Assembly (NCBI GenBank): GCA_018304465.1 | Contig: JAGVWC010000009.1 | Coordinates: 32,001-96,000 of the forward strand | Length of the DNA stretch: 64,000 nt | From: Candidatus Iainarchaeum sp. | GTDB taxonomy: Archaea > Iainarchaeota > Iainarchaeia > Iainarchaeales > JAGVWC01 | Direction of reading: 5' to 3' | In this document: piece after piece, positions 10,932 through 62,351 of the stretch | Layout: the number at the start of each line of letters is the position of its first letter | How positions within the stretch are numbered: position 1 is the first letter of the stretch | Notes under the pieces: model-generated | Seen by the model: the letters and a program-made list of their open reading frames with translations, nothing else | What the model was told of the DNA's origin: nothing | The model's database searches: none | Translations under genes and position numbers: made by a program

Positions 10932-10937
10932 CATCGA

Positions 10938-45248: not shown

Positions 45249-45387
45249 ATCGTTTTTTCGAAGACCAAAAAATTATTAATTCAGTTGACTGGTTCAACCT
45301 TTGGATCCGAAGGAAAAATTTTCGAAAAAATCCTTTTCAACCAAAAACCGTTTTTTTAACAGGGTTGATTCGATGTCGTTCCCTTTG

Positions 45388-46191
45388 TCAGTTTCTTTTC
45401 ATGCGCGATTTTTTCAGCGCTTTTGTTCTAGAGCAGCCCATTTCTTTTAGCCAGCGCGCTTTGAGGCTCGCATGATCCTGGAAAAATCCAGAATGATAAT
45501 TTGGATTGGGGCGAAAAATGTCGATTTCCTGCCAAAACAGGCTGGTGTCCAAAAGGGGGCGCAAGCTTGCCGCCGCGACCTGATAGCAACGCAGCCAGTA
45601 ACGTTTGTCGGCAAATGGACGCTCGCCGTGTTTTTCCGTGCTGCCAACATTGATGAATACGCCACGCACGTTCCCTCGAACTTGGTTTCGAATATATTCG
45701 CGGAGCAGGTTCTTGGATTTTGAGTAGGATTGCCACCATGGAACGACAAAACGGTCACTGATTGATCCGAAGGCGCACAGCGTCAGGACGTTTTTTTTTC
45801 TCTTACCCCAAGATTTTGCTCGCTTCAGAAGTGGCTCTGTCAAGTTTTTGAATCCAGAAAAATTACTGGAAAAGACGTCGTCGTCAATGCCATCGCGATC
45901 CGCATCATATTTGGGCCGTCCGGTCTTTTCGAAAAAGAATGGTCCAATGGCATATACCAGTATGATTTCACGATAATGCCGAAGCGGAAGATCGGAAATG
46001 AACCGTTCGGAACTCTGGGAATCAAGAACGTTCACCGCATACAGGTTTTTTTTTGGATCCGCGGTGTTTTGGGAAATACCGACACATTGTGTGTTCGGAA
46101 GCGAACCTAGAAAACGCGAAAACGTTTCACCCATCTTGCCGCGTGCGCCGGCGACAATAACGAGTCGAAAGGATTCTTTTGCTTGCGCCAT
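45388..46191 (-). CDS. Divergent Rossmann/SDR-like protein
   Basis: VAGARGKMG, FGSIS, YSKSK. Confidence 0.65.
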   Translation of the reverse strand: MAQAKESFRLVIVAGARGKMGETFSRFLGSLPNTQCVGISQNTADPKKNLYAVNVLDSQSSERFISDLPLRHYREIILVYAIGPFFFEKTGRPKYDADRDGIDDDVFSSNFSGFKNLTEPLLKRAKSWGKRKKNVLTLCAFGSISDRFVVPWWQSYSKSKNLLREYIRNQVRGNVRGVFINVGSTEKHGERPFADKRYWLRCYQVAAASLRPLLDTSLFWQEIDIFRPNPNYHSGFFQDHASLKARWLKEMGCSRTKALKKSRMKRN

Positions 46192-46281
46192 ACTTAAATT
46201 CGGTTATCTTCCCTATTCTACTTCCCGTTCAAGCGGTTTTTAACCGTTTAGTTTAAATTGTTCGACAGGCCACTTGTTCTA

Positions 46282-47136
46282 ATGCCCTTGGAATTTGTCT
46301 TGCCATTCGGAAAAAAAAGCGGCCTGAAAAACTTGATTTTCAGCATTCTGGCCAATGAACACCCCTTGCGTCTCATCAACCTGGTTACGCGTATCCGTCG
46401 ACGGTACGGAAAAGAGGTTTCGTTCCAAGCCGTGCGCAAAGCGGTGCTTGGACTCGTAGAGGAAGGTATTTTGGTGCGCGAGGAAAACAGGTATTCAATT
46501 GACAAGGCATGGTTGCGCGGAATCAAACAGTCAGTTGACGCATTGTACGCGGACCTGAACGAGGAAAAAAGCACCGCAAAGCGGACGGAATCGATTCGAG
46601 GAGAAGTATCGATTTTTTCCTTCGATTCGCTTAACTCCATGGTGTTGTTTTGGCAAGATATAATTTCGAACTGGTTTTCATCCTTCAAAAAAGGTGATTA
46701 CAACATGAATTGCTACCAGGCCGCACATGCATGGGAAAGCTTACTTCACTTGGAACGCGAAAAGACGGTAATGGGCCAGTTGCGCAAAAAGAGAATCAAA
46801 AGCGTGATTGTCTGTATGGGCAATACGCCATTAGACCACAACATCATGCGTTTTTACAAAAAAATCGGGGTCAAAATGGTCATTCGACCGTCATTTTCGC
46901 AGTTTGATCGTGGGCATTATTTGGCAACATACGGCGATCTCGTAGTGCAAACCCAGTACCCGGGCGAAATTATGCGCGCCCTTGAACGCTTTTTCAAGAA
47001 AAACAAGTCTCTTGAAGACCTTGACCTGAAAGCATTGTCGGACATCGCCAACCAAAAATGCGCCTTGAAACTCACGGTAATCAAAAACCTTGAAATGGCA
47101 CGACAACTCAATCGTTCGATTATGGCCGTGCCTTAA
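46282..47136 (+). CDS. Winged-HTH transcriptional regulator (TrmB-like architecture)
   Basis: N-terminal VSFQAVRKAVLGLVEEGIL wHTH, C-terminal effector-type domain; divergent from the SDR-like gene. Confidence 0.7.
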   Translation: MPLEFVLPFGKKSGLKNLIFSILANEHPLRLINLVTRIRRRYGKEVSFQAVRKAVLGLVEEGILVREENRYSIDKAWLRGIKQSVDALYADLNEEKSTAKRTESIRGEVSIFSFDSLNSMVLFWQDIISNWFSSFKKGDYNMNCYQAAHAWESLLHLEREKTVMGQLRKKRIKSVIVCMGNTPLDHNIMRFYKKIGVKMVIRPSFSQFDRGHYLATYGDLVVQTQYPGEIMRALERFFKKNKSLEDLDLKALSDIANQKCALKLTVIKNLEMARQLNRSIMAVP

Positions 47137-47166
47137 TTGAAAAAAAAAGCACGGTTGAAGGGATAT

Positions 47167-47197
47167 GACTTTTACAGCATTAGCCCCGGAGAAAATA
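47167..47197 (+). repeat. att-like site 1 (outermost)
   Basis: GACTTTTacagcaTTAGCCCCGGAGAAAATA; 18/18 identical to 50423-50440. Confidence 0.75.
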
Positions 47198-47257
47198 CAT
47201 CTGAAACTGTGCAAAAAAGAGTTTCCGAAACAAATTCTCCAGGCACTTGGAAATTGA

Positions 47258-48328
47258 TCAGGGATAAAAATCGATTCGCGGATCAACAAACTTTTTCCAG
47301 TATTCCTTTTTTTCCGTCACATTTTGCGGAACGGTGTAAATATCCGAGCGGAGAGGCTTTCCCGCCACACTTTCTTTCATAGCGCGGGTCGGCTTCCAGT
47401 CCAAGCCAATTTTTTTCATCGCTTTTTGAAACAGATAACATCGGAGTTCAAGCATTTTTTGTTTCAGTTTTTCCTTGTCCAAACCTGCAAGTCGTTCCCA
47501 CTGTGCGACCGAAAAATCAGACAACACCATTTCCAATTCTCGGATTTTTTCAAACGGAACTGGCTTTTTATCCAGCAACACCGCCCAATGAGTCAGCCCG
47601 TTAATTGGGTCGCCCTCATATGCGCTGTGTGCAGAGACGGTATCTATTTTGATTCGCACGTTTTCGTAGACACAAAAAATTTGTAGGTCTTTTCCCGGCA
47701 ATGCGCTCGCTTGAGGCCAAAGTTCTGTTGCCTTTAAATTTAACACTTCTTTTATTGCCAACGAGTGGTTTTTCCCGAATACGTTCGTGGCATCATACGG
47801 ACCGTTGACTTCGATCCCAAAATCAGTGTAAATGTCTGAGTACAACCCGTTAATGACGTGGTATCCGGCCATATACAACCGTCCTAATTGGCGTGCGATG
47901 TCGGGAGTGGCTTTCAAAAATGCGATTTCTTTAAGCATTTTTTGAATTTCGTCTTCCGAATAGACTGAATTGATTCCATCTACGCAAAATGGGTTGGAGT
48001 GGCGTTGTATATTGTTGATTTCATAAAAAAATTCAACCAATTCCAGTCTTTTTTTTTTGCTAATCTTCGCGAGTTTCAATTCCGTTGTGAGAAAGAAAAG
48101 TTGGGTGCTGAGCGCGCTTGGATTTGGAAACAATTTGGCCAATTCTTTCTTGCTCAGTCCGCTTTCGTCGCATTTTTTCTTCAAGTTTGCCAAGAAGTCA
48201 ATCCATTCTTTTGCGTATAAGGAGTGCATGGCAATAAAATCAACTGGCTGAAGCGTAGTCGTATCCATCCCGACAAGTGCGTCCGAAAATCCGTCCACCA
48301 GTGGGTCTAACCAGGCATCATTTTTCAA
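47258..48328 (-). CDS. Hypothetical protein
   Basis: Long ORF; TTG start overlapping the end of the PEP-mobile gene inferred. Confidence 0.65.
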   Translation of the reverse strand: MKNDAWLDPLVDGFSDALVGMDTTTLQPVDFIAMHSLYAKEWIDFLANLKKKCDESGLSKKELAKLFPNPSALSTQLFFLTTELKLAKISKKKRLELVEFFYEINNIQRHSNPFCVDGINSVYSEDEIQKMLKEIAFLKATPDIARQLGRLYMAGYHVINGLYSDIYTDFGIEVNGPYDATNVFGKNHSLAIKEVLNLKATELWPQASALPGKDLQIFCVYENVRIKIDTVSAHSAYEGDPINGLTHWAVLLDKKPVPFEKIRELEMVLSDFSVAQWERLAGLDKEKLKQKMLELRCYLFQKAMKKIGLDWKPTRAMKESVAGKPLRSDIYTVPQNVTEKKEYWKKFVDPRIDFYP

Positions 48329-48647
48329 GCGCAAACACTTCCCCGGTTTTTCCATCCATTTCAACCAGTTGTCCGTTTCGAAGGCGTACCGTCGCATCTC
48401 TTGTTCCAACCACACAAGGGATTCCCATCTCACGCGCAACAATAGCAGGATGGGACATCATAGCCCCGATATCGCAAATAATTCCGCCCGCTTTTGACAT
48501 GAGCGGAACCATTGTTGGATCAGTAATTCGCGTGACGAGGATATCGCCGTTTTGAAAAGACGGCCAGTCGGTTTTTTCCAGGATGACCTTTACTTTCCCC
48601 CTTATTTTTCCAGAACTTACCCCAACACCCTGTAAAATTTTTTCCAA
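48318..48647 (-). CDS. Stand-alone PEP-utilising enzyme mobile (phosphohistidine) domain
   Basis: GDILVTRITDP, GAMMSHPAIVAREMGIPCVVG. Confidence 0.92.
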   Translation of the reverse strand: MEKILQGVGVSSGKIRGKVKVILEKTDWPSFQNGDILVTRITDPTMVPLMSKAGGIICDIGAMMSHPAIVAREMGIPCVVGTRDATVRLRNGQLVEMDGKTGEVFALEK

Positions 48648-48658
48648 ACAACCACCCC

Positions 48659-49408
48659 TTATTTTCGCACTTGAATCGTTCTACGCGTTCCGTCACTGTA
48701 GACGAGTTGAATAACGCTTTGTCCTCGTTGTAATGCCTTGCCTACCGGTACTTTTCTTCCGGTAAGCGCTTCAACGGCATAATCTACTTGGATTGGAATT
48801 CCCTTTTCCCCGCCGTGACTCACGAAATTCAAAAAATAAACCGGAGAACCTCTGGTTAATTCTTTTCCGTGTAATCGAAAAATATCTGCAACCTCGGTCA
48901 CTTGGTGCATTTTTTCTCGCACACGCGCTTGGGATTCAAAACTTGGTACGGATTTACCGGCTCCGTATTGTTCCATTTTTCCGATAATATTTTGCTGGGC
49001 CTTTCTTGTTTTTGGATACTGTCGAAATCGTTTGTCCGTATTAACAAGGGCCAAACTTGGATTTTGAACGTGATGATGTCCTTGTACGTGAATGCCCTCA
49101 TCTGAAAGTTTTGCGGAAATACCCAAAAAGTTGGCTTGGTCTGTTTCGACCGCGCGTTGTAATGGAGAAGCGATTCCGGTATAGAAAAGGCCGCGTGCTC
49201 TAATCTGACGCCAGATGCTTGGATTTCGCTTTAAAACTTCTATGAAACGCTCGCCATGACGTGTTGCATGTGCAAGACCGGGCAAGCTAAGAGGATATTG
49301 ATTTTCGTTTGCCCAACGTCCCGGTTGCATGATGGCTCGGTCATGTCGCGTGACGGCAAAAATTCCAACCAAACGTTTGGAAGACGCAGTCCTCTTTATC
49401 GGCTTCAA
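48659..49408 (-). CDS. Divergent histidine-phosphatase-fold protein with basic N-terminus
   Basis: TRHD, ASPLQRAVET, FVSHGG. Confidence 0.65.
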   Translation of the reverse strand: MKPIKRTASSKRLVGIFAVTRHDRAIMQPGRWANENQYPLSLPGLAHATRHGERFIEVLKRNPSIWRQIRARGLFYTGIASPLQRAVETDQANFLGISAKLSDEGIHVQGHHHVQNPSLALVNTDKRFRQYPKTRKAQQNIIGKMEQYGAGKSVPSFESQARVREKMHQVTEVADIFRLHGKELTRGSPVYFLNFVSHGGEKGIPIQVDYAVEALTGRKVPVGKALQRGQSVIQLVYSDGTRRTIQVRK

Positions 49409-49454
49409 CGGTGCTCACCTTGACAATTTATTCAATAAACCTGCAAAGGCTTTT

Positions 49455-49680
49455 TTAAGGTGCTTTTCCCAACTTTGGTTGAAGCGCCAGTAAAATCGCT
49501 TTTGTTTGTTATTCCAGTGCCGCCATGCGCGCTTCGAGCTCTTTTTCTCGGCCCAGTTTTTCGGCCACGACCTTTGGATTGATTGAGATGCCGCAGGTCG
49601 GACAAACCCTGGTGATTTTTTTTGGGTTACGAATACCACAAAATCTGAAATATGCGGAAAAAATTGTTTCGGGGTTAGGG
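49455..49680 (-). pseudogene. Zinc-ribbon plus coiled-coil remnant, possibly an integrase C-terminus
   Basis: FRFCGIRNP...VCPTCGISI...ELEARMAALE*QTKAILL; no start codon, internal stop. Confidence 0.45.
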
Positions 49681-50121
49681 TTGAGAATGATGTGTGAGGA
49701 AGTCTCTCGGCGATACGACCTTGATTTTTTGCAATTCTTTTATCTTGAGCACGTTCTTGTCTCCGCTAATTAAAAAATCTGCATTAGCAGTTAGAGCGCA
49801 ATGAAAAAACTTGTCATCGTCGGGGTCTTCTGGCACGACTTTCGGCAAATACTTGGGTTGCACAAAAGCTGATTTTTGCTCGAAAGCCGCAAGCGCAAAA
49901 TCTCGAAATTCAACGGATGCGTACTTGGCGATTGCGTCGCGACCTAACACCCCCCTGATTTCACCCAAGATTTCTTCAGTCGCAAAGTTCTGGATTTTGT
50001 CAGAAAGCAACAACTTGAAAATATTGGCAGGCGGGCTTTCGCGCGACAACACAGCCGAAATAATGACGTTGGTGTCCAGTACCACATTAGGCTTTCTTTC
50101 GGGTTTTTCGGATAACGTCAT
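49675..50121 (-). CDS. PIN-domain toxin (VapC-like)
   Basis: VVLDTNVIISA, DPDDDKF, LISGDK. Confidence 0.92.
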   Translation of the reverse strand: MTLSEKPERKPNVVLDTNVIISAVLSRESPPANIFKLLLSDKIQNFATEEILGEIRGVLGRDAIAKYASVEFRDFALAAFEQKSAFVQPKYLPKVVPEDPDDDKFFHCALTANADFLISGDKNVLKIKELQKIKVVSPRDFLTHHSQP

Positions 50122-50344
50122 TGATTTCTTCCTCGGTAAACTTGTTTTTGACGCCGGCACGCAAACGCTGGAATTCGGATACCAATTTCTGTGTATTCAT
50201 TTTCTTTAAAACAATAGTGTTCTTGTCCAACGGAGAAACCGTAAAAATCGTCTCCGATTCGGATTCCGTGAATTCACGCGTTTTTTTCGGAATAACAAGC
50301 TGGCCCTTAGTGGACATACGAGTCGTTTCAACAATTGTTTCCAT
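50087..50344 (-). CDS. AbrB/MazE-family antitoxin
   Basis: MSTKGQLVIPKKTRE; upstream of and overlapping the PIN gene. Confidence 0.9.
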   Translation of the reverse strand: METIVETTRMSTKGQLVIPKKTREFTESESETIFTVSPLDKNTIVLKKMNTQKLVSEFQRLRAGVKNKFTEEEINDVIRKTRKKA

Positions 50345-50389
50345 TCGTTTCACCCTGATACTATTAAAGGACAACCAATTTTTAAAACT

Positions 50390-50424
50390 TCTTAAAAGTA
50401 GGAAAATCTTAAAAGTAAGATTTT
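50390..50424. promoter_or_regulatory. Tandem palindromic operator of the TA operon
   Basis: TCTTAAAAGTA(G/A)GA at 50390 and 50407; the second is inside a perfect AAAATCTT/AAGATTTT inverted repeat next to the TATA box. Confidence 0.6.
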
Positions 50425-50488
50425 AGCCCCGGAGAAAATAACAGGGGAAGAGTAGGAGCCCAACCTCTTTTCGGCTTTTTGTCTTGCC
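50423..50488 (+). repeat. att-like site 2
   Basis: 54/66 ungapped identity to 52943-53008. Confidence 0.85.
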
Positions 50489-50545
50489 TTTTTTTTTATG
50501 AGTTGTACGTAAGGGTTTTTAGAGACTTGTGCCAAAATAACTTTA

Positions 50546-51088
50546 ATGGCATGGAAAGTTATCAATTCAAAGTATGCGTTTGACAACAAATTTGTGAAAG
50601 TCAGACAAGACGAATGCCTATTGCCGAACGGGTCTTCATCCGATTTTTTTACTGTAGAAATTCGAGATTGGGCACTGGTAGTTGCGTTTACGCCTTCAAA
50701 AGAAATCGTTTTGGTAAAACAATACCGGCACTCCGCCGGTCAAGAGCTGATTGAATTACCCGCAGGAGTAATGAAAAAAGATGAAAAACCGGAAGACGCA
50801 ATAAAACGTGAATTTTTGGAAGAAACCGGCATGGGACTAAAACAGATAGAAGAACTGGGAGCCTGGTTCACCATGAGCGGAAAAAGCAATTGTAAAACTA
50901 CCGCGTTTTTTGGGATTACGATGGAGCAAAAAGGAGCACAGCAATTGGACAAAGAAGAAAATATTCACATTCTTTTCAAAAAACCAAAAGAAGTTTTGCA
51001 AATGATTGCAACCGGAGAAATCAAAACAGCCCCTTATATCGCGGGAATCTTGGCCGCAAAAGAAAAACATCCCGAATATTTCAAGTGA
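50546..51088 (+). CDS. Nudix hydrolase (ADP-ribose pyrophosphatase-like)
   Basis: KQYRH, ELPAG...AIKREFLEETG. Confidence 0.92.
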   Translation: MAWKVINSKYAFDNKFVKVRQDECLLPNGSSSDFFTVEIRDWALVVAFTPSKEIVLVKQYRHSAGQELIELPAGVMKKDEKPEDAIKREFLEETGMGLKQIEELGAWFTMSGKSNCKTTAFFGITMEQKGAQQLDKEENIHILFKKPKEVLQMIATGEIKTAPYIAGILAAKEKHPEYFK

Positions 51089-51106
51089 CCTTGAAGGTTT
51101 TGAAGA

Positions 51107-51868
51107 TTGAAGGCGATCATTTTAGCGGGTGGCCAAGGAAAACGATTCGGAATTGCTCAAAAAATACTGCCAAAATCGTTGGTTCCGATTGGAGGAACGC
51201 CAATTCTGAAAGCGGTTATTGAGGATTTTGCGCAAAATCCAGAAGTAGACGAAGTTATCATTCTTGCAGGGGGAAACCGAAGAATTCGAAATTTTGCCAA
51301 CTGGACTCGCTTCAAAAAACCCGTGGCCGTTCTAAACGTGGATAAAGGCGTTTTTGGAGACCTATTGAGTGTTCGAGACAAAATCGGAAATCAGCCTTTT
51401 ATCATAGGAAATGCTGACAATCTGGTTCTTGCCAGACTCCCAACCAAGGAACAATTTGAAAAGTCCAATGCTTGGATGGTAACCGCAGTTACCCGAATCA
51501 AAAAACCAGGAGAATTTACGGGAATTGAATTTGAAGGCGAAACCGTTACCCGTGTCGATGAAAAAACAAGAACAAGTCAAACCGACTTCGGGGTTGTTGG
51601 CAAAAAAATGCTTTCGCCAGAAGTAATGGATTTTATTGCAACCCAATCATTTCCAAGAAACTCCGGCATTGGGGCATTAACCCAACGCCTTTTCGAAACC
51701 GGAAAAAAAATAGTCCCAATTATCGTTCCACGAGAAAATATTATCCACGTTACCAACTTTTCGGATTGGTGGAAACACAGCAAACGCTATGATTCCTTAC
51801 GCGCCGCATGGATTGCCACCAAATCAAGAATTCCGAAAAGAAAGCCCAGACGACCATACAAACGGTGA
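51107..51868 (+). CDS. Nucleotidyltransferase family protein
   Basis: ILAGGQGKRF...LPKSLV, GNAD, DEK. Confidence 0.85.
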   Translation: MKAIILAGGQGKRFGIAQKILPKSLVPIGGTPILKAVIEDFAQNPEVDEVIILAGGNRRIRNFANWTRFKKPVAVLNVDKGVFGDLLSVRDKIGNQPFIIGNADNLVLARLPTKEQFEKSNAWMVTAVTRIKKPGEFTGIEFEGETVTRVDEKTRTSQTDFGVVGKKMLSPEVMDFIATQSFPRNSGIGALTQRLFETGKKIVPIIVPRENIIHVTNFSDWWKHSKRYDSLRAAWIATKSRIPKRKPRRPYKR

Positions 51869-51869
51869 A

Positions 51870-52844
51870 TCATAGGCGGGCCACTATGATTTTGGCAACA
51901 TCGTTAAAACGGGTTGCTGAATTCTCATTGTCAAACCACGCGGACAACAACAACTGGTTCCCAATCACCCGTGTTTGTTTGCCAAGCACAATAGCAGAAA
52001 ACGAAGAACCAATAAAGGCGTTTGAATCCTTTTCCGACTTCAAGAGCTGAACAAGGCCCTTCAAACTTTTCCTGCTTGCTTCCTCAAAAATACGGTTTAC
52101 CTGCCGCGGAGTGGCCTTTTTCTTCAAAACAAATCGTAGGTCCATCAAAGAAACGCCCGGATACGGGACCGTTCGATAATTCACAAAAAAATCCTTAAGA
52201 ACCGGGAAGAGTTTAGGCCCTACGTACTCCAAAGTGCAGGGCTTTAGCAAAATTTCACCAAACGGTTTTGAGATTTTATTCAGAGGTGTATTGTGAATAA
52301 CGCTTGCCGAAGCCGACAAAATTCCAAACTTGGAATGAACGATCTTGGCGACCGGAAGAAAACAATTGATGGTACAAGACCCATATGAGACAACATGGTG
52401 CTTTGAAGCAGCATATTCCTTTTCGTTAAACCCAACAATAAGCGTTTTATCTGCCGACATAGAAGTAGCTGAAATCAAAACTTTACGAATATTTTTCCGA
52501 AAATGCTGCATCGCTTGCTTTCGTTTCGTAAACTGACCAGAACACTCAAACACCAGTGAAACATCTTCAGACCACGGAATTAATCCTGGTTTTGATTCGG
52601 ATAAAAGCCCAATTTTTTTGTTACTTATCGAGAGCGTGTTCTTTCCAATCAGCCTAACCGGAAATCCGATAGGCCCAACAACGGCATCTGCTTTTAGGTT
52701 TCGAACAATTTGTGAAGGAGACGAAAACGGTTCATTAATTTGCACAATTTCATAGTTGGTCTTGCCCGAATTTTTTTCATGTATCCAAAGTCGAAGCAAA
52801 CGAAGCCCAAAACGACCAAGACCATTCAAACCAACTTTAATCAA
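51870..52844 (-). CDS. Divergent type I GAPDH-like dehydrogenase
   Basis: GLNGLGRFG, FECSGQF, GSCTINC, WFDNE; TTG start at 52844 inferred. Confidence 0.85.
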   Translation of the reverse strand: MIKVGLNGLGRFGLRLLRLWIHEKNSGKTNYEIVQINEPFSSPSQIVRNLKADAVVGPIGFPVRLIGKNTLSISNKKIGLLSESKPGLIPWSEDVSLVFECSGQFTKRKQAMQHFRKNIRKVLISATSMSADKTLIVGFNEKEYAASKHHVVSYGSCTINCFLPVAKIVHSKFGILSASASVIHNTPLNKISKPFGEILLKPCTLEYVGPKLFPVLKDFFVNYRTVPYPGVSLMDLRFVLKKKATPRQVNRIFEEASRKSLKGLVQLLKSEKDSNAFIGSSFSAIVLGKQTRVIGNQLLLSAWFDNENSATRFNDVAKIIVARL

Positions 52845-52929
52845 ACCAATCCCCAAGTTCAACAAAATTGATACGTTGATTCTATTAAAACGGTTATTTT
52901 CACCGACACTTGCCGAAGACGACATTTCG

Positions 52930-53008
52930 GACTTTTTCCCTGTTAGCCTCGGAGAGAAAAACAGAGAAAAAGTAGGAGTCCAACTCCTTTACGGGATTTT
53001 GTCTTGCC
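52930..53008 (+). repeat. att-like site 3 (both arms, attP-like)
   Basis: ACTTTTTCCCTGTT-15 nt-AACAGAGAAAAAGT inverted repeat (13/14) around the tRNA-like core. Confidence 0.85.
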
Positions 53009-53066
53009 GTTTACTGACTGTGCGGAAGTCTTTTTATTACTTTTTGTGTTGAGCAATAATTCATTT

Positions 53067-53098
53067 TATTGCTTAATATAATAAGCAATATTTATAAA
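53067..53098 (+). promoter_or_regulatory. 9-bp perfect inverted repeat plus TATA box upstream of the ATPase
   Basis: TATTGCTTA-atataa-TAAGCAATA followed by TTTATAAA, 22 nt before the ATG. Confidence 0.6.
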
Positions 53099-53120
53099 CG
53101 GTTTGGCAGATAATTAAGTC

Positions 53121-54398
53121 ATGATTTCAAAACAGGCCCTGAAAACGGTTATTTCAGACCAATGGAAGGAATTCGAATCCTTAAAGGATTCCGTTCCGCG
53201 AAGCGTTTTTTCCAAAGCCTCTTCGTATACCGGCGCTTCGGCATTTGTCGTCAAAGGCGTGAGGCGTTGCGGGAAGTCCACTTTGCTCAAACAGTTGTTA
53301 AAAGCGAAGTTTGATGGGAATTTTTTTTATTTCAATTTTGACGACGATCGGATAGCCGGTTTTATCACTGCCGATTTTCAAACTTTGATTGAAACCTTGA
53401 TTGAGGCATATGGAGAGAAAAAGACCGTTCTTTTCGACGAGATTCAGAACATTGCCGGCTGGGAACTGTTCATCAACCGGATTTTGCGCCAAGGCTACAA
53501 GGTTTTCATCACCGGTTCCAATGCGAACCTGCTAAGCAAGGAGCTTGGAACCCATCTGACGGGCCGTCATGTGGACATTGAACTGTACCCATTTTCATTT
53601 TGCGAGTTCTTGAAAGCAAACAAAATCGAAGTCCCGAGAAAAGGGTTCTATTCTACCGAACAAAAAGCCCAATTATCCAAAAAATTCAAGGAATACATTT
53701 TGAAAGGAGGAATGCCAGAACCCGTCGTACTAAAAAACGAGGAAATGTTGACCCAAGTATTCAACGATATTGTGCAAAAAGATATTGTCACCCGATACAA
53801 TCCGCGAAAACCGTCCGAACTCAAAATCGTATTAAAATTCCTGCTGGCCAATGTTTCAAATCCCATCACATATCGTTCCATCCAAAGCAACTTTAACATT
53901 AAATCCGCGAACACGATACAAAAATACACAGAATACGCGGAAGAAACATACCTAGTTTTCTCAGTCCAACGGTTTGAAAAAACACTTAAAAAGTTTGATA
54001 AAAACCCGAAAAAAATATATTGCGTCGACAACGGGTTGATCCTGAAGAATACTCCAACGATTTTGGAACGAAAAGGCGCCTTGTTGGAAAACATTGTTGC
54101 GGTTCAATTGAAACGCATTGGAAAAGAATTTTACTATTACAAAAACAAGTCCTCGCATAACGAAGCCGACTTCGTGGTACCCGATGAAAAAACCGCGATT
54201 CAGGTTTGTTACGAACTCACGGACACCAATAAAGAACGAGAACTAAAAGGATTAACCGACGCAATGAAGGAAACCAAAGCAAATACGGGGCATATTCTTA
54301 CGCTGGAGCAGGAACAGGAAATAGAATACAATGACAAGAAGATCCCTGTCAAACCCGTCTGGCAATGGTTAATCGAAACTGAACCCGATAACACGTAA
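53121..54398 (+). CDS. AAA+ ATPase (AAA_14 / DUF4143 type)
   Basis: GVRRCGKST, FDEIQ, TGSNA, KKIYCVDNG, EADF...IQV. Confidence 0.93.
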   Translation: MISKQALKTVISDQWKEFESLKDSVPRSVFSKASSYTGASAFVVKGVRRCGKSTLLKQLLKAKFDGNFFYFNFDDDRIAGFITADFQTLIETLIEAYGEKKTVLFDEIQNIAGWELFINRILRQGYKVFITGSNANLLSKELGTHLTGRHVDIELYPFSFCEFLKANKIEVPRKGFYSTEQKAQLSKKFKEYILKGGMPEPVVLKNEEMLTQVFNDIVQKDIVTRYNPRKPSELKIVLKFLLANVSNPITYRSIQSNFNIKSANTIQKYTEYAEETYLVFSVQRFEKTLKKFDKNPKKIYCVDNGLILKNTPTILERKGALLENIVAVQLKRIGKEFYYYKNKSSHNEADFVVPDEKTAIQVCYELTDTNKERELKGLTDAMKETKANTGHILTLEQEQEIEYNDKKIPVKPVWQWLIETEPDNT

Positions 54399-54421
54399 AA
54401 ACTGTGATGAGAAGAAGGAAA

Positions 54422-56257
54422 ATGAGCCATATATTTCAATTCAAGATTCAACTGGATGAAATTCAACCGCTTATTTGGCGGCGTTTTCTGGTCGGAGACG
54501 GGATAACTTTTCAACAGCTTCATGAAACCATCCAGACCGCCATGGAATGGGAGGATTCTCACATGTATGAATTCGTAATTGGCGAACATACGATTATATG
54601 CAGTGAAGAAGGGCATAATTTTGCCGAAGCGGACTTTCGAAAACTGTTCAAATCACCCGAATTTCTGAAAATGCTCGAAAAGCAGCAAATCGGAAAAGAA
54701 GGAACGATGCTCAATCTCAGAAAAGTTAACGCGCTAAAAGAAAAAATAGAAAAAAACAAGCCAAAGCAACTATTTGACCTGGAGACCCCGCTTCAGGCAC
54801 TCGTAAACAAAGAGGGGCAAGAATTCAAGTACAGCGATGACTTCGGAGACAACTGGAACCACACAGTCACCTTGGAAAAAATAATTGAGCAAAAAGACGC
54901 AAAAGAATACCCGATCTGCCTTGAAGGTGCCCGCGCAACTCCGCCTGAAGACTGTGGAGGCGTCACAGGGTATTACGAACTCGTGAAGGCAATGGCAAAC
55001 AAAAACAGCCCGCAACGGAAAGAATTGTTGGATTGGCTCGGATATGAATTCGATCCGGAAAAGTTTGGCCCGAACCAAATCAACAAGACGCTTTCCGACA
55101 AAACAACCCGCGAATTTTCGAATGAAGAATCAGCAAGAGTCCCTCTTTCTCCGCTCGTTCGGAAACTGACCCAACTTGACAACGAAGAAGGGTATAAACT
55201 CGGACAAAAAGAGGCAATGGATATGATGGCCCGCACAATCGATGAAATCGTTCAGGGCGGAGAAGCAATAACCCCTGAGCTTGGAATGCTATTGAATAGA
55301 GAAGAAACCTACAGCAGTTATTTTGCACTAAAAGCAATGCGAAAAATCGGTAGTCCGAAAGCGATACCGCCCCTGATTCAATTCCTGAAGACTTTTGAGA
55401 ACGGAGATTATTACGAATCCTACGAAGAAGCGATGTTCGCGCTTAACGACATTGGCAAGCCATCCATAACACCACTAATAAACGAAATAAGATCAAGTTT
55501 CAAAAAAAAGGAATATTACACCTATCTCGTGGGGGGCCTTACGCAGATTAAAAGCGAAGAAGCCTACGCATTCATGCTGGAAATCGTAGAAGATTACTTG
55601 AAAAACGACAAAAAATACGGGGCCTGGTTTGACATTGTTCATTTCATTTTTGATCTCGACAAACAGGAAAAAAAGGAAGCCATTCCGCTTCTTCAGCGAA
55701 TACTACTTGAAAAAGCGCTTGATCCGCGGCAAATTCGCGAAATAGCGGACACGATCAAAGAGATTGAAGATCCAAAAAAGTTTAAGGAAAGAATCGATCA
55801 AAAAATGGATGCCATCGACGGAGCTGAGAATATTCCGCTAAAAGAACTGTTAACGACCGAATGCGACGTTAAAGCGTTTCGGGAACTCGAAAAGGATTCA
55901 GAAAATTTTTACAAAACCTTCGATACGTTCTTTTTCATGATTGACGTGAGCGTTAAGCAATACCATAAAGTGAACCCCGATTTAACGGACGAAGACGTTC
56001 TTGAAGCATTGAAGCGCATAAAAGAGAATATTTGGAGAGACGAAAACGACACCGAAGTGGAAGCGGTTATAAAGAAGCAAATCAAACAGTATTTGTTATC
56101 CGCAAAACAAGAGGGGCAAATGGTAAGCACGATTGAACTGAAAACGCTGGTAGGAAAGATAATAAAACGAATCAAAAACCAATCGTTGGGGGAAGAAAGT
56201 TATTTGGAATCCATCGACTCACTTTTTGGCAAAAGCCCGGGCAACAGACCTGTTTAA
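54422..56257 (+). CDS. pRiA4b ORF-3 family protein with HEAT-like helical C-terminus
   Basis: IWRRF, AMEWEDSHMYEF, DFGDNWNH, PPEDCGG, FDPE. Confidence 0.88.
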   Translation: MSHIFQFKIQLDEIQPLIWRRFLVGDGITFQQLHETIQTAMEWEDSHMYEFVIGEHTIICSEEGHNFAEADFRKLFKSPEFLKMLEKQQIGKEGTMLNLRKVNALKEKIEKNKPKQLFDLETPLQALVNKEGQEFKYSDDFGDNWNHTVTLEKIIEQKDAKEYPICLEGARATPPEDCGGVTGYYELVKAMANKNSPQRKELLDWLGYEFDPEKFGPNQINKTLSDKTTREFSNEESARVPLSPLVRKLTQLDNEEGYKLGQKEAMDMMARTIDEIVQGGEAITPELGMLLNREETYSSYFALKAMRKIGSPKAIPPLIQFLKTFENGDYYESYEEAMFALNDIGKPSITPLINEIRSSFKKKEYYTYLVGGLTQIKSEEAYAFMLEIVEDYLKNDKKYGAWFDIVHFIFDLDKQEKKEAIPLLQRILLEKALDPRQIREIADTIKEIEDPKKFKERIDQKMDAIDGAENIPLKELLTTECDVKAFRELEKDSENFYKTFDTFFFMIDVSVKQYHKVNPDLTDEDVLEALKRIKENIWRDENDTEVEAVIKKQIKQYLLSAKQEGQMVSTIELKTLVGKIIKRIKNQSLGEESYLESIDSLFGKSPGNRPV

Positions 56258-56296
56258 AACCGTTTGCAAAAATCCAATCGCCCAAATTGGCTTGAT

Positions 56297-56900
56297 TTAA
56301 TCCAAATCCCAAAAATCGGTTCCGTTGTCTTGAAGTTGTTCAAGGCGCATCCAGATGACGACCGCTCTGCGCTTTTTTTCAGGGAGTTTGCAGATAGTAA
56401 TCGCGCCCGCGTTCATGAGACGATAGAATTCGCTGACCGTGATCGGATTTTGACCGAATTGTTTGGCGAGTTCTTCGAATTTTTCCCTGCAATCAAAAAG
56501 AATTTCGTCATGGTTAAAACATTTCCGATCACAGTTGTTCCCTGCATAAGTATTGATTGCTCTGACGATGAGCAGAACCAGAGGTTTTTTCCGGAATTTT
56601 CCAATGGACGTCAAGACCCATTTTATTTCGGCATACGAAAAATCTTGCGGCAATGTTTTTTATTTCGGTCAAGCCTTTGTTCGGGTTTTCGTTGACCGCT
56701 TTTTTGATTAATTCGATTTTGGTAGGAGAAAGAAGTTCCTCAATCCGCGTTCGCTTTTGCCCCAATAAAATTCGAATGTGGTTTTCGATGGTAGAAAATG
56801 CGAGTTTTCGCTTGTAGGCAATTTCAGGCATTGAAAACCCCGCTTTATGCAATTCCAGAGTCATTTCAAGCGAATTTATCAATGCATTCTTTTCTTTCAT
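56297..56900 (-). pseudogene. Frameshifted HTH protein (RecQ C-terminal HTH_40-like)
   Basis: EIAYKRKLAFSTIENHI...LTEIK continues in another frame as LPQDFSYAEIKWVL; shift at the A6 run 56656-56661. Confidence 0.7.
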
Positions 56901-56980
56901 TCATTAAGAAGTAGGAAGTTTTCAGTATAAATGATGATAGGATATCAGCCCACGATTTCATAGAACGCTCTGTCGGCTAC

Positions 56981-57007
56981 GACTTTTTCCCTGTTAGCCC
57001 CAGAGAG
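56981..57007 (+). repeat. att-like site 4
   Basis: 25/27 identity to 52930-52956; TTAGCCCCAGAGAG 14/14 identical to the tRNA 3' end. Confidence 0.88.
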
Positions 57008-57136
57008 GCCGAAGAACGGAAGTAATCAGCCTGTGAAATTTTTTTCTTCGCTTCATTTATATTACGACGTTGAAAAATATAAATGTGACGTTTTTGATTT
57101 GGGGCTTTCATGACCGATGTAATTTTTTTGTTCTTG

Positions 57137-57967
57137 TTATTTTTTTGGTAGCGAAGCAAATATTTCTTGTGTGAGTTCCTTGATTTCTTTTTTTGGTCTT
57201 CTGTTTCTGTGGGAATAGAGCGCTAGGAATAGAGCGTATGGCTTCCAGAATTGTTGTGTTTGTGTGAACTCGTTTGTGTTTCCGCCATTTCGCTTGTATT
57301 CGGATATGAATCTTGCTTGTTGTTGTGGAGTTAGTTTCAATTTGGTCATAGTTCGCCAAAGTTCAAAGTCGCGAAATGAAATGCCTGCATCTCCGATATC
57401 AATTGCGACGAGTTTGCCTTTGCGTGTTACGATGTTGTCGCGTGCCAAGTCGTTGTGTGACAAGACCAGCGGCAGGCGGGTGGCTGCATGGGTCAAAAAG
57501 AATGTGCGCAAGCGATTTGCCTGTGAAGCAGTTAGGAATCTTTCTTGTTCTAGTATTCGGGTTCTTTCTTTTATCCGGTTGAAAACGGTTTCTATTTTGG
57601 GAACCTGAATTTTAAGGGGAATGTGTGCAGAATGCATTTTGGCGACCATTCGAGCCATTTCTGCGATCTGGCCTCCGGTTAATCTTTTTCCTTCAAGGGT
57701 TTCTCCTGCAATATAATCTAACAGAACAAATGGTCCTTTTCTTAGCAACACTTTTTGTACGGGAACTCGGCGTTGTACCCAAGCATTTGATATTGCTTCT
57801 AATTCTTGGGCTCTGCGTGGATTTTTTTCCATGTGGTAGCGGTACTGTGGATCGGGCCTGTTGTCAATAAACACATGTCTTTCGTTAACTGAACCGCGAG
57901 TGACTTCCCGAAATTGTGGGGTAATCACAGGGCTTTTTTGAACCTGTTTTCTGCTGCTCCTTTTCAT
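57137..57967 (-). CDS. APH/choline-kinase-like phosphotransferase with basic N-terminus
   Basis: LDYIAG, LSHNDLARDNI, AIDIGDA. Confidence 0.85.
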   Translation of the reverse strand: MKRSSRKQVQKSPVITPQFREVTRGSVNERHVFIDNRPDPQYRYHMEKNPRRAQELEAISNAWVQRRVPVQKVLLRKGPFVLLDYIAGETLEGKRLTGGQIAEMARMVAKMHSAHIPLKIQVPKIETVFNRIKERTRILEQERFLTASQANRLRTFFLTHAATRLPLVLSHNDLARDNIVTRKGKLVAIDIGDAGISFRDFELWRTMTKLKLTPQQQARFISEYKRNGGNTNEFTQTQQFWKPYALFLALYSHRNRRPKKEIKELTQEIFASLPKK

Positions 57968-58036
57968 GGCAACATCAAGAACCAATCACTATTTGTATGT
58001 TTCGAATGCATTGAGATTTGTAAAATGTAACGCAGA

Positions 58037-59268
58037 TTAAATTTTTGAGTCGGTTCCAAAAATCGCGTCTTCGGCTAAGGGTATTTTTTCCAGTATTTGA
58101 ACTACATTAGACTCTCCACCGAAAGCGTGTAAACAGTTGTGACAGACGTATCTTCGTTGGGTGGTTCGAAAAACGATTTTTTGCCGTCTACGATGCGTAG
58201 AAAGACAAAAACAGCAGGGGGGAGAAACGATTCCGATGGCTTCGCGGTAGGCTTGGTTGGCGTCGTCGGAGATTAAGCCGGAGTAGATTTTGATCATTTG
58301 GCTGGATTCGTTTCCCCAGATTCGCTTGCAGGCAAGGGACTGGCTTTTCAGGTTTTTGAGTGCCCAGGTGGCAGCGGATCGGCGGAATTTGGTGAAATAG
58401 ATTTTTTGGCCTTCGTATTGGGAGTATCGGAATCCTTTGGAGGATTTTTTTTGGGCCCAGTGGCCTAGGCCGACTTTGATAGCTAGTCGTTTGAGGGTGA
58501 GGTTGAGTAGTTGGTTGCTGATTGGTTTTGGGGGTCCATTGGTGGTACAAAAGAGAAAGTCATTGGGTTGTTGGCGGGGCTTTTTTCGTACCATTCACGG
58601 ACGTAGTAGGCAAGGTCGGGGGTTAGCAAGACGTTTTCGCGGGGAAAGGTTTTGGATTCAAGGAATGAGGCGGCTACGGTTCCGTCGGAATTGAATTCGA
58701 GGTTTTTTCGGCGTAATCCTAGTAGTTCGCCGGAGCGGGGTCCGCAGCCAAAGCCAACGGCAAGAAGAGCTTTGTGTTGCGTGTTTCCAGCGTTCAATAG
58801 TTTGGAGAATGTTTCGTCGGTGATGAGGAATTCGTCGAGTTTTGCTTTTCGCTTGGGGTCGGAATAGGGATTTTGAACGGTGATGGCGTCTTTGCAATTG
58901 AGCAAAATGGTGGGATAGCGATCGGGATTGGTCCACTTGATCCAGATTTTGATGTTTTTGACCATTTCCCGCCAGGTATGCAAGGAATAAACTTTGTGTT
59001 TGTTTTCGTATCGCTCAATGAGTTTAACCAATTCGTTGGTTTCGCTTTCTTGAAACGGTTTCAAAGGCTTTTCGAATAAGGTGGAAAAGAAGTGTAATTG
59101 GCTGGCTAAGCGGCTTTTTCGGGCAATGCTTAATTGTTTCTTTTTGAATCGATAGTTTTCGAGAAAATCAAGAATCAGAGTCTTATTAGGATTAGGTAAA
59201 CGATTGATTTTGACGAGTTCGGCAGCCATTCGCCGTTCTAAACAGTGCGGATCAAATATCTGGTCCAT
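58037..59268 (-). pseudogene. Tyrosine recombinase/integrase, split by a 1-nt frameshift
   Basis: GPRSGELL and SKT in the first ORF; FRRSAAT, MIKIY and a C-terminal Cys cluster in the second; shift near 58576-58586. Confidence 0.85.
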
Positions 59269-59332
59269 ATAATTAATCCCTCTCCTTTCACATAGTTAAG
59301 AAACGAAGAGAAGACTAATTACTTTCAGTTAT

Positions 59333-59424
59333 TAGCCCCAGAGAGATTCGAACTCTCGTCACGGGAGCGCTCCTACTTAGACATAATCAGAGTCCCGGAT
59401 GCTTGGCCACTACACTATGGGGCT
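59333..59424 (-). tRNA. tRNA-Gln(CTG) with 19-nt intron at 37/38 (59368-59386)
   Basis: AGCCCCA/TGGGGCT acceptor stem, CGGGA/TCCCG anticodon stem, GAGAG-TTCGAAT-CTCTC T arm; BHB motif CTCT/GGAG with GAT and CGC bulges; CCA not encoded. Confidence 0.96.
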
Positions 59425-60381
59425 GTGGATGTGGAGGTTGATTAGTGACTTCTTGCTGAAGAATGTTTAAAAGCTTTCGTTGTTTTGTCGGGTGCCAAAA
59501 ACCGACTTTTTTTTCAAATCGTGCAAGAGACGAACGTCGTTTGATCTGAAGCGAGTAAAGCATTTTGTATTTCGGATTTTTTAATCACGTGCCGCGGAAA
59601 GGACGAATGCCTTCGGCTTCCAATAAAGGGCAGATTTGATCGAGTATTTTGCAGCTTGTACTGGCATAACGAATCGATCGGGTGCTTGGAATGCAAGATC
59701 CGTCGGAATCAAACAACCCGCGAATGCAGGCTTTGTAAGATCAGTATTTTGGGTTTGGAAGATTCGATCTGGAATAATTATTCGGTCGGCTTTTTTTCCG
59801 CCGATAAAGCCGAAATACGTGCAAAAAAACCAATGGAACACAAATGAGCTGATAGATAGACAGACACATCCACGGCGAGGGTATTTTTTCGGTTTCAATG
59901 CAAAAGTGGAAACCAACAGATAGGAATACAACTCCGCATGATCCGAAGAATCGAAAAATACTTGTATGACCCGCTTACGAAATCCCTTCTGAAAACTCCC
60001 AGAAATCGATCCGTCGCCGAGCAATAATCCGACGATGTAACATAGTTCCGGCGACAGTTTTTTGGGAAACTTCATTTTGTGTCCCGAATAGTTCGCGCTG
60101 AGATAAAATTCTTTTTCGTCGAATCGTTGTCGGTATTCGAGTCGCTTTTCCGCCGGAAGAAATTCGATCATGCGATCGAGTTGTTTGAGCGGAATTGGTT
60201 TTCCTCTCCAAGGCCATTCGCAAACCTGTTTAAATTTCAGATTTAATTTTCGGGCAGTTTCGGTTACGCCACCAAGTTCGTGGCACATTCTTTTTATTTC
60301 TTCTCGGATTCCGTGAGCGAATATTTTTTCTTCGTTGTCTTGGCAAGCAGGTTCAAAAATCGATAATGTTTCGTTTTGCAT
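59387..60381 (-). pseudogene. Two-motif LAGLIDADG endonuclease-like pseudogene
   Basis: YIVGLLLGDG; second motif CIRGLFDSDG after a frameshift near 59733; TGA at 59585-59587; then VGFWHPTKQRKL. Confidence 0.85.
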
Positions 60382-60503
60382 TCACGGAATTCGGATTTGC
60401 TTTTTTTACGTCTTTAGAAGCGGTGCATCGCCAGTGAAATAGTAAGCATTGCCTCTTGCCATCAAGGATGGCAAAGTCTCTTGAAGGAACCGTACGAAAT
60501 CGG

Positions 60504-61202
60504 CTATTTTCCGTATCTGCGATCTCGTTCGTTGAATTCGGTAACGGCTTGGTTGAGGTCGTTTTTCTGGATTTCGGGCCAGTATTTGTCCAAAAAATAG
60601 AGTTCGGAGTAGGCGGATTGGTAGGTTAAAAAACCGCTTAGGCGTTTGGTTCCGCTGGTGCGGACAATCAAATCGGGAAACGAAAAATCGGAGTACAGGA
60701 ATCGTTTGAATGTTTCCGTGGTGACGTCCGATAATTTGAGTAATCCTTGTTGGTAATCCGTCGCGATTTTTTTGGCGGCGTCCACGATTTCGTTTTGTCC
60801 GGAGTAACCGATCGCGAGGTTGATGGTGCGGGTTTTGTTATCTTCGGTTTTTTTTTCCAAGTCCGTCATTTTTTCTTTGAGTTTTTTTGGCAACAGATCG
60901 GTTTGCCCGATGAAGCGTAACCGAAGGTTTTGGTCTTCGAAAATCGGATTGGCCGCGGCTTTGTCGAGTTCGCGGTCGAATATTTTGAGAAGCAAATGCA
61001 GTTCGGTTTTGTTTCGCGTCAGATTTTCCAACGAAAGCGTGTAAAAAGTCCCGGTTTTAATGGCGGGATAATCGGATAGCCAGTGCATGACGTCCCACGC
61101 TTTTTGGGTGCCCAAGCGATAGGAATCCACCAGGGAAATACCGTGTTGTTTGGCGAACCGGCGGTTTCCATCCGGAATAAACGCAATAGACGAGAGTTCC
61201 AT
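60504..61202 (-). CDS. uppS: cis-prenyltransferase (polyprenyl diphosphate synthase)
   Basis: IPDGNRR, SLEN, DLIVRTSG, RLSGFL, RRYG. Confidence 0.95.
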   Translation of the reverse strand: MELSSIAFIPDGNRRFAKQHGISLVDSYRLGTQKAWDVMHWLSDYPAIKTGTFYTLSLENLTRNKTELHLLLKIFDRELDKAAANPIFEDQNLRLRFIGQTDLLPKKLKEKMTDLEKKTEDNKTRTINLAIGYSGQNEIVDAAKKIATDYQQGLLKLSDVTTETFKRFLYSDFSFPDLIVRTSGTKRLSGFLTYQSAYSELYFLDKYWPEIQKNDLNQAVTEFNERDRRYGK

Positions 61203-61319
61203 AAATTTGTCTCCGATAAAAACGATTCATTGGTTTTGGTACAATCCTCGAATGGAGTGCCCAATAACCTGCCCTAAATACCTAATAACAACGCTTTTAA
61301 ATTTCGAATGTTGTGGTCT

Positions 61320-61971: not shown

Positions 61972-62106
61972 CCGATGGTATGAGTGTCCATCGGCATTAG
62001 TATCCTGGCATTGGGTGCGATCGGGTACGAATATTTCAAAAAATAGTCGTCAACATAACGGGGGCTCAAACACGTTTTTTTAAATCGTTTGCTAAAGAAC
62101 TTGTTC

Positions 62107-62292: not shown

Positions 62293-62351
62293 ACCGTTTT
62301 TCTGAACCCAATCAACGCATTTTTATTCCTTAACTTCGTTTTCTTTGAAGC

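Follow-up and report, generated by a model that had tools for sequence, protein, structure and literature searches.

A probable tandem-accretion island of four core-bounded units at the tRNA-Gln(CUG) gene of a Candidatus Iainarchaeum genome

We analysed a stretch of 64,000 nt from a Candidatus Iainarchaeum genome (the window; positions 32001-96000 of contig C13 of genome G000, an assembly of 1,246,008 bp in 15 contigs that is 92% complete), in which an array of short repeats, integrase-less gene units and a single tyrosine integrase lies beside a tRNA-Gln(CUG) gene. DPANN archaea are presumed to rely on other cells and have very small genomes, and the ways in which they acquire accessory genes are poorly known. 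An earlier note on this DNA placed the host among the DPANN-type archaea, and this is borne out, two of the genomes of its order that hold homologues of the integrase being Candidatus Iainarchaeum.

The repeat is a 13-bp core, TTAGCCYCRGAGA, of which the window holds five exact copies, all on the + strand (47180, 50423, 52943, 56994 and 59332). Dinucleotide-preserving shuffles predict 0.09 copies, and none of 100 shuffles reached five. Across the 1,246,008 bp and 15 contigs of the assembly, exact copies are confined to these five. Two copies with one mismatch lie on contig C15, on the other strand, and a reversed-pattern control gave three forward and two reverse matches; scanning the window at up to two mismatches returned no core beyond the five. 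Every core is intergenic, and the core-to-core distances of 3243, 2520, 4051 and 2338 bp define four units of 3.2, 2.5, 4.1 and 2.3 kb, called A to D here. The outermost core, S1, is flanked by a 292-aa open reading frame (ORF) that ends at 47136 and a 394-aa ORF that ends at 47258. The attachment (att)-type sites and their arms are as follows.

47180..47192, + strand: S1 core, TTAGCCCCGGAGA; outermost att-type core and distal border of the array
50423..50435, + strand: S2 core; matches S1 exactly over 18 nt
50436..50492, + strand: right arm of unit B; homologous to 52956-53012
52930..52942, + strand: left arm GACTTTTTCCCTG, common to units B and C; repeat family D3
52943..52955, + strand: S3 core, TTAGCCTCGGAGA; attP-like junction bearing both arms
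56981..56993, + strand: left arm of unit C; identical to 52930-52942
56994..57006, + strand: S4 core, TTAGCCCCAGAGA; pattern match
57018..57031, + strand: D-type arm motif GGAAGTAATCAGCC; inverted partner of 59313-59326
59313..59326, - strand: D-type arm motif GAAAGTAATTAGTC; 5 nt 3' of the tRNA
59332-59344, + strand: S5 core; within the 3' end of tRNA-Gln(CUG)
59333..59424, - strand: tRNA-Gln(CUG) with a 19-nt intron at 37/38, from a manual fold; its 3' end carries S5

The earlier note had claimed five cores in one orientation, one of them the 3' end of tRNA-Gln, that bound units of about 3.2, 2.5, 4.1 and 2.3 kb, and this description stands. Its positions 47180, 50423, 52943 and 59332 are correct, and 56993 is off by one (the actual position is 56994). 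The genome-wide core scan that it proposed as a check finds exact copies nowhere outside the array. Position 9 of the core is G in S1-S3, as in the tRNA-Gln of other lineages (e.g. G017 and G011), and A in S4, S5 and the host tRNA, a difference that fits different origins for units A-C and for unit D.

ARAGORN labels 59333-59424 as a tRNA for Ile, or for Glu with an intron inside the anticodon, and in Rfam the tRNA at this position falls below the gathering score, probably because of the intron. When folded by hand, the same interval has the acceptor, D and T arms of the tRNA-Gln(UUG) of this genome and a CUG anticodon, and syntenic genes of relatives are called tRNA-Gln(ctg), some of them intron-bearing. 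On the manual fold and these syntenic calls we identify the gene as tRNA-Gln, as the earlier note had done. Syntenic tRNAs that adjoin the undecaprenyl-diphosphate synthase gene (UPPS) in several metagenome loci are labelled Glu, Pyl, Lys or Arg, perhaps through a similar miscall.

The flanks of the cores are modular, again as previously described. The interval 50423-50492 is 81% identical to 52943-53012 over 70 nt, core included (repeat family D1), and 52930-52956 is 93% identical to 56981-57007 (25/27, core included; family D3); S3 carries both arms, S4 shares the left one and S2 the right one. S3 resembles an attP that is still intact, since one attP type is common to units B and C on both arms. 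Here the inverted repeat 52931-52944 / 52960-52973 (ACTTTTTCCCTGTT / AACAGAGAAAAAGT) is complementary at 13 of 14 positions, and as single-stranded DNA the site folds at -15.7 kcal/mol (z -4.16). The fold of S2 has a z of -2.38 and is a small hairpin from a toxin-antitoxin palindrome; z lies between 0.05 and -0.94 at S1, S4 and S5.

An attP of unit D can be reconstructed from the left flank of S5 and the right flank of S4, and this gives an inverted pair of GAAAGTAATTAGTC-like motifs, complementary at 11 of 14 positions. A GAAAGTAATTAGTC-like motif is also found after the tRNA in the orthologous elements of genomes G001 and G177, and beside an S4-like core in G002, whose contig C3 holds an S4-homologous site with the same right flank (GAGAGGCC.AA). 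The arm pair of units B and C at S3 differs from this D-type motif. Since the D-type motif travels with the D-type integrase and the B/C pair is a different one, B and C seem to have been served by a second, related integrase aimed at the same tRNA core; no such integrase is present in the 92%-complete assembly. BLAST of 52925-53020 against the 195 other genomes of the order gave A-rich chance matches only (E >0.001), and two pattern scans of IMG/VR for the B/C arms gave one match each, limited to the 18-21 nt that were queried.

The genes of the units, and the native flank beyond the tRNA, are listed next.

47193..50422: unit A; both ORFs of unknown family, the PIN_3 toxin and the antitoxin are all on the - strand
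47258-48442, - strand: 394-aa ORF of unknown family (unit A)
48659-49408, - strand: 249-aa ORF of unknown family (unit A)
49512..49640, - strand: possible, weakly matching integrase C-terminal zinc-ribbon remnant of 42 aa (unit A)
49675-50160, - strand: PIN_3 toxin (unit A; Pfam, PHROGs, NCBIfam)
50087-50374, - strand: AbrB-like antitoxin of 95 aa (unit A; Pfam, PHROGs, NCBIfam)
50436..52942: unit B; genes on both strands
50546-51088, + strand: NUDIX hydrolase (unit B)
51107-51868, + strand: sugar-phosphate nucleotidyltransferase (unit B)
51870-52925, - strand: divergent type I GAPDH (unit B); starts 18 nt from S3
52956..56993: unit C; genes on both strands
53121-54398, + strand: AAA_14/DUF4143 ATPase (unit C; PADLOC PDC-S01, E 3.7e-106)
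54404-56257, + strand: PRiA4_ORF3 and HEAT protein (unit C)
about 56303-56900, - strand: HTH_40 gene, frameshifted (unit C)
57007..59331: unit D; a kinase and the sole integrase of the array
57137-57985, - strand: APH/choline-kinase-family kinase (unit D)
58037-59268, - strand: tyrosine integrase (unit D), frameshifted near 58546-58588, C-terminus replaced
59581..61202, - strand: native flank, a 266-aa HTH protein and UPPS

The integrase of unit D starts 65 nt 3' of tRNA-Gln(CUG) and matches the PHROGs integrase families and NCBIfam XerA. It is split into 58483-59268(-) and 58037-58594(-): the intact 424-aa orthologue from G001, a genome of the same family, is 69% identical and aligns in two frames that overlap at 58546-58588. 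The last ~60 residues of the window protein are not homologous to the C-terminus of the family and match an 80-aa zinc-ribbon ORF of G002. With this frameshift and a foreign C-terminus, the window copy is not an intact recombinase. An SSV-type (class I) split-gene integrase was considered and ruled out: the att core lies outside the integrase gene, upstream of its start codon, and the N- and C-terminal parts are contiguous save for the frameshift.

A second frameshift affects the HTH_40 gene of unit C, to which a 193-aa G002 protein aligns at 56879-56643 and at 56656-56303 in different frames; the break falls at a T6 run near 56656, and T6-7 runs are present in both frameshift regions. Both frameshifts are likewise present in contigs from other runs. 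Given the two-frame alignment, a 143-aa + strand ORF at 56264-56695 is probably spurious. We regard the array as decaying because the integrase and the HTH_40 gene are both frameshifted, and it is probably immobile unless another integrase acts.

That the units other than the tRNA-proximal one lack an integrase, as the earlier note had it, holds for A, B and C in an integrase hidden Markov model (HMM) scan, with no six-frame signal in B and C. In Pfam, units B and C have no transfer genes and units A-D no helicase/primase replication module. The zinc-ribbon fragment of unit A matches positions 335-375 of the integrase-family HMM at 10 bits, with E 0.0085 among 594 window ORFs; among 28,733 ORFs genome-wide it has E 0.35 and ranks ninth, which is not significant. 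Pfam, PHROGs, NCBIfam and PADLOC all fail to assign the 394-aa ORF of unit A to a family, and its Atlas model is poor (pLDDT 0.35), with top structural matches that score <0.8. A palindrome at about 50403-50424, upstream of the toxin-antitoxin pair, abuts S2; it is operator-like and folds as a hairpin. PDC-S01, the family of the unit C ATPase, is a candidate defence family in PADLOC. GC content varies between the units, and is 0.40-0.43 in B and C as against 0.46-0.50 across the contigs.

We then placed the integrase within its order, using a set of 196 genomes and a survey of 72 integrase loci with wide flanks, in which tRNAs were called by ARAGORN. Homologues are present in 55 of the 196 genomes. 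The family profile is closest to archaeal XerA structures (4a8e, E 2.5e-24; 5hxy, E 6.8e-23), with IntI4 at E 3.3e-13, and in ten members R178, R296, Y329 and four C-terminal zinc-ribbon cysteines are invariant. A same-strand tRNA 3' end lies within 400 nt upstream of the integrase at 52 of the 72 loci, usually at 56-200 nt, and the tRNAs have many anticodons. Several of the remaining 20 loci have little or no upstream sequence or no tRNA called, and two of them (G146:C9 and G102:C84) have a tRNA farther upstream, behind extra units. Repeats of the final 12 nt of the neighbouring tRNA (one mismatch allowed) occur 14 times downstream on the same strand in 371,625 bp, twice upstream in 288,621 bp and not at all on the opposite strand in 660,246 bp. 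A 16-mer search with all tRNAs (up to two mismatches) gave 16 downstream, two upstream and no opposite matches, a count in which one downstream and one upstream match are two tRNA-Ser genes pairing with each other. From the tRNA adjacency and the downstream bias of the tRNA-end repeats we take the family to be tRNA-targeting integrases of integrative elements, and the cores in the window to be their att repeats.

Further members of the family accompany the window copy in its own genome. An apparently intact paralogue, 44% identical to the G001 orthologue, lies at C15:2617-3873(-) (locus L089). At about 3945, ~75 nt upstream of the start of this integrase, stands the 12-mer TCTGCGGGGCTA, identical to the 3' end of tRNA-Gln(UUG) on C1; the orientation of the 12-mer relative to the integrase is the opposite of the family norm, and C1 and C15 may be neighbours. 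Other matches are at C7:683-2053, beside a tRNA-Arg, and at C6:162321-164450. In G177, a genome of a different family from G001, the integrase at 9998-11260 of locus L075 (G177:C44) is 84% identical to that of G001, contains one in-frame TGA and adjoins tRNA-Gln(UUG) rather than CUG. This likeness suggests a recent horizontal spread together with a switch between two tRNA-Gln genes.

Arrays comparable to that of the window are found elsewhere in the order. Two or more downstream cores are present at five loci, each with exactly one integrase: the window (three cores by the 12-mer rule, four by the pattern), G146:C9 (four), G102:C84 (two), G077:C4 (two) and G090:C8 (four). No integrase fragment was detected in the integrase-less units of the four other arrays. 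G146 can be compared directly with G149, a second species of the same genus, since their flanking genes, tRNA, integrase element (84% nt identity) and distal att region align. An extra 4.3 kb in G146 sits exactly between the 3' end of the tRNA and the core that precedes the integrase; in G149 the tRNA and the element adjoin directly. Cores divide the insert into two units, one with HicA/Fic and one with a single AAA_14/DUF4143 gene, that have an arm of ~50 nt in common. The one-gene unit measures 1.5 kb between cores, has flanks of about 100 nt, and lies tRNA-proximal to the integrase element. The check that the earlier note had proposed, a search for unit gain that breaks at the cores in relatives, thus gives a positive result at another tRNA in another family, and not at the window locus.

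Three of the cargo modules of the array have homologues in other genomes that stand beside a tRNA end, att-like fragments of a tRNA or an integrase. The GAPDH of unit B is 67% identical to that of one other genome of the order, G113, and 27-36% identical to the usual GAPDH of the 89 further genomes that gave a match. In G113, GAPDH and nucleotidyltransferase again form a pair (69.4% nt identity across 1747 nt), which begins 51 nt beyond tRNA-Leu(UAG); a partial 3' fragment of a tRNA lies in the gap, and the orientation to the core is that of the window, where the pair starts 18 nt after S3. No distal repeat of the tRNA-Leu end was found in G113. G026:C36 also has the PIN/AbrB pair with the palindrome upstream of it, there preceded by three copies of a 13-mer that resembles a tRNA end; the copies lie on one strand and are the only ones in that assembly, and in two of them the 42-nt left arms are identical. 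The window, G146 and G026 are thus three separate genomes in which neighbouring integrase-less units have an arm in common. The ATPase of unit C and ~90 nt upstream of it recur in six genomes at 66-71% nt identity, and in one of these, G028, they stand directly behind an integrase of the family; no att repeats were found around that pair.

Taken together, 47180-59344 is likely to be a composite island that grew at tRNA-Gln(CUG) by tandem accretion, through four or more integrations in succession, and is now decaying. The claim that its five sites are att-type junctions of serial integrations at the tRNA 3' end is borne out by unique same-strand cores, modular arms and the pattern of the family; the steps that lead from the repeats to a mechanism are inferred. 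An incoming circular element would carry an attP made of the 13-bp tRNA core between its own arms, and recombination by a tyrosine integrase would restore the end of the tRNA and leave the displaced core as a direct repeat. S2-S4 would then be hybrid junctions, each with a left arm from one unit and a right arm from the next. Unit D, with its kinase and integrase, would be a minimal element of the order-wide family, whose integrase is encoded on the 3' side of the target tRNA at a distance of ~60 nt. B and C would be sibling modules with one attP type for both arms, unrelated cargo and no integrase, and unit A an older module with a toxin-antitoxin pair. We lean, without great assurance, towards B and C having entered as integrase-less, att-bearing modules that a related but non-resident integrase served in trans. 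That they are deletion derivatives of integrase-bearing elements is a serious possibility, which we place somewhat short of the halfway mark.

Contigs from four other runs (X5, X6, X8 and X9) were examined over 44500-62500. X5 bridges S1-S5 in the arrangement of the window. No core joints are present in these contigs, which cannot reveal rare excision forms and so are silent on mobility. A joint, 46120>47911 (side 22), and a 37-letter replacement between 49077 and 51574 look like other organisms. Loose ends at 59329, 59341 and 59360 fall within the conserved tRNA and belong to short contigs of unassignable origin.

The earlier note had gone further and proposed an active accretion platform, in which the resident, tRNA-adjacent integrase captures and excises integrase-less cassettes in trans in the manner of integrons or tycheposons. 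One integrase for four units, the attP-like S3 and the integrase-less units in other arrays of the family all speak for this proposal. However, the resident integrase is frameshifted and its C-terminus has been replaced, and the arm motif that is kept with the orthologues of G001, G177 and G002 is missing from the arms of B and C, so that mobilisation by this recombinase is not upheld. An integron-like nature fares no better: a strong hairpin forms at S3 and at none of the four other sites, and the units hold two to four genes each, on both strands. Moreover, D adjoins the tRNA, and insertion at the proximal site would make it the last arrival. We consider an active platform decidedly unlikely. 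It is hardly credible that the repeats are no recombination sites at all but either products of chance or functional tRNA-like fragments, such as elements of promoters or terminators or decayed tRNA copies. The core is merely 13 bp long, and the left flank of S2 is the operator-like toxin-antitoxin palindrome, but the excess over expectation, the single strand and the restriction to this locus in the genome all argue otherwise, as do cores downstream of a tRNA with an adjoining integrase and the family-wide direction of such repeats (14 downstream, two upstream and none opposite).

Two further accounts accept the integrations and differ in how the units reached their present form. Each unit could be the stump of an element that once bore its own integrase, which was later deleted, with no mobilisation in trans at any stage. 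This is the usual route to cis-mobilizable elements (CIMEs) in bacteria (PMC5704250), and loss of the integrase after integration has been reported in archaea (PMC8371274). The weak zinc-ribbon fragment of unit A, the pseudogenes in C and D, the ATPase homologue beside the G028 integrase and a truncated integrase remnant in G002 all fit. Against it stand the lack of any integrase fragment in B, C or the integrase-less units of the four other arrays, the intactness of both arms in B and C, the one-gene, 1.5-kb unit of G146 that lies tRNA-proximal to the integrase element, and the arm-sharing neighbours in three genomes. Deletion throughout is accordingly a plausible account that we nevertheless do not favour. 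The array could also have been built elsewhere, and have come or been inherited as a single composite, in which case S2-S4 would be relics at which this lineage never saw any recombination. The same-family genome G002 has an S4-like site whose right flank matches, as well as homologues of the HTH_40 protein and of the integrase C-terminal piece at 59-63% aa identity, and composite transfer is known for tandems of CIMEs with integrative and conjugative elements (ICEs; PMC5704250). The G of S1-S3 as against the A of S4-S5 at core position 9, and the differences in GC between units, fit separate origins instead, although they do not date the joining; we judge arrival as one composite improbable.

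Several observations weigh against serial accretion of integrase-less modules as we propose it. The B/C arms are absent elsewhere in their own assembly, in the 195 other genomes of the order and in IMG/VR, and no cognate integrase is known for them. In G002, homologues of the HTH_40 gene of unit C and of the integrase C-terminal piece of unit D lie ~2 kb apart with no core between them; from this comparison, units C and D may share some history or have exchanged modules, and not be wholly independent arrivals. Integrase-less units usually arise by decay (PMC5704250), and together with the weak zinc-ribbon fragment of unit A this favours deletion over arrival without an integrase. The left border of the array rests on S1 alone, because the genes to its left have no syntenic homologues in relatives. 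The nearest metagenome UPPS is only 60% identical in amino acids, and the assemblies of the same-family genomes G001, G002 and G003 are fragmented at the locus.

Beyond S1, the 292-aa ORF has a weak homologue that adjoins an ATPase homologue at 9439-11167 of locus L184 (G024:C1). In view of this pairing the true left border may lie beyond S1. Farther left, 40751-44509 encodes a 1252-aa protein with MopE-type metal-binding motifs and carbohydrate-binding domains, which has three paralogues in the genome (C12 and C15). Within unit C, the region upstream of the AAA_14/DUF4143 gene is kept across genomes (53030-53120 in the window, 8600-8713 in L179); TTGAGCAATA / TAAGCAATAT-like motifs recur in it and may represent a promoter or operator carried along with the gene.

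On the native side, the UPPS-tRNA-Gln(CUG) neighbourhood is kept across the order. It was present at 8 of 15 loci fetched at tRNA-Gln matches, with an integrase at the tRNA in one of the eight (G001), and none of 28 metagenome UPPS loci gave an integrase match. Relatives without an integrase at tRNA-Gln(CUG) often carry a second copy of the last 12 nt of the tRNA, 45 nt to 1.1 kb downstream (e.g. 4024-4035 of L020, G020:C36; also L153, L019, L171 and L150), and such copies may be traces that past integration or excision events left at this hot spot. The interval 61627-61860 of the window has 68-77% nt identity in many genomes of the order and overlaps a 138-aa + strand ORF.

That elements accumulate in tandem at tRNA genes, some as att-flanked units with no integrase, is established for bacteria (PMC5704250). 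The streptococcal CIME islands of the ICESt1/ICESt3 type (PMC5704250) resemble the present array in serial 3'-end integration, chimeric internal att sites and integrase-less units that keep their att sites. Here, in contrast, the host is an archaeon, conjugation and relaxase genes are absent, the integrase is Xer-like with a zinc ribbon, and two neighbours share both arms. The tycheposons of Prochlorococcus (bioRxiv 10.1101/2020.12.28.424599) likewise form tRNA-side islands in a streamlined genome and carry metabolic and defence cargo; nothing but a partial tRNA copy parts one element from the next, older elements are displaced inward as new ones arrive, and degenerate remnants occur. They have their own bacterial clade of integrases and helicase/primase replication modules, whereas units A-D have no such module and one broken integrase for the four of them.

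For archaea, re-use of one site to form arrays, loss of the integrase after integration, and exchange of modules between tandem elements have been described (PMC6563490, PMC8371274). The elements concerned, among them the integrated mobile genetic elements (iMGEs) of Thaumarchaeota and cryptic integrated elements, are also tyrosine-recombinase elements at tRNA genes, in tandem at one locus; in the sources consulted they are described in Thaumarchaeota, Thermococcales, Methanococcales and halophiles, and the units here are small by comparison (2.3-4 kb). The words "DPANN" and "zinc" are absent from the review of archaeal recombinases PMC8371274. With integrons the array has in common one recombinase beside a row of site-bounded units, the sites in one orientation; it differs in that the cores are tRNA-derived and not attC hairpins, the units hold several genes with their own upstream regions, and the integrase profile is nearer XerA than IntI4. 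A full-text literature search, supplements excluded, returned no description of such arrays for Iainarchaeota. Tandem accretion is a well-known route of island building, apparently not described before for this group, and the locus extends known biology (CIMEs, tycheposons and archaeal tandem integration) to a new lineage; it brings no new mechanism.

Judging by this array and its counterparts in no fewer than five further genomes, site-specific accretion beside tRNA genes seems to have repeatedly supplied the order with genes for defence, toxin-antitoxin systems and even metabolism. It also offers a testable setting, since a defined integrase family, unit-specific inverted-repeat arms and arm-sharing integrase-less neighbours allow arm specificity and mobilisation in trans to be addressed. 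A broader possibility, which we raise tentatively and think doubtful as yet, is that small integrase-less modules with tRNA-derived att sites are exchanged throughout the Iainarchaeales at many tRNA genes, served in trans by zinc-ribbon Xer-like integrases of helper elements. If true, this exchange would be an archaeal counterpart of the tycheposon and satellite systems, with toxin-antitoxin pairs, PDC-S01-type ATPases, accessory glycolytic or sugar-nucleotide genes and kinases as its cargo, and would rank among the chief ways in which these genomes, for which few other means of transfer are known, acquire genes.

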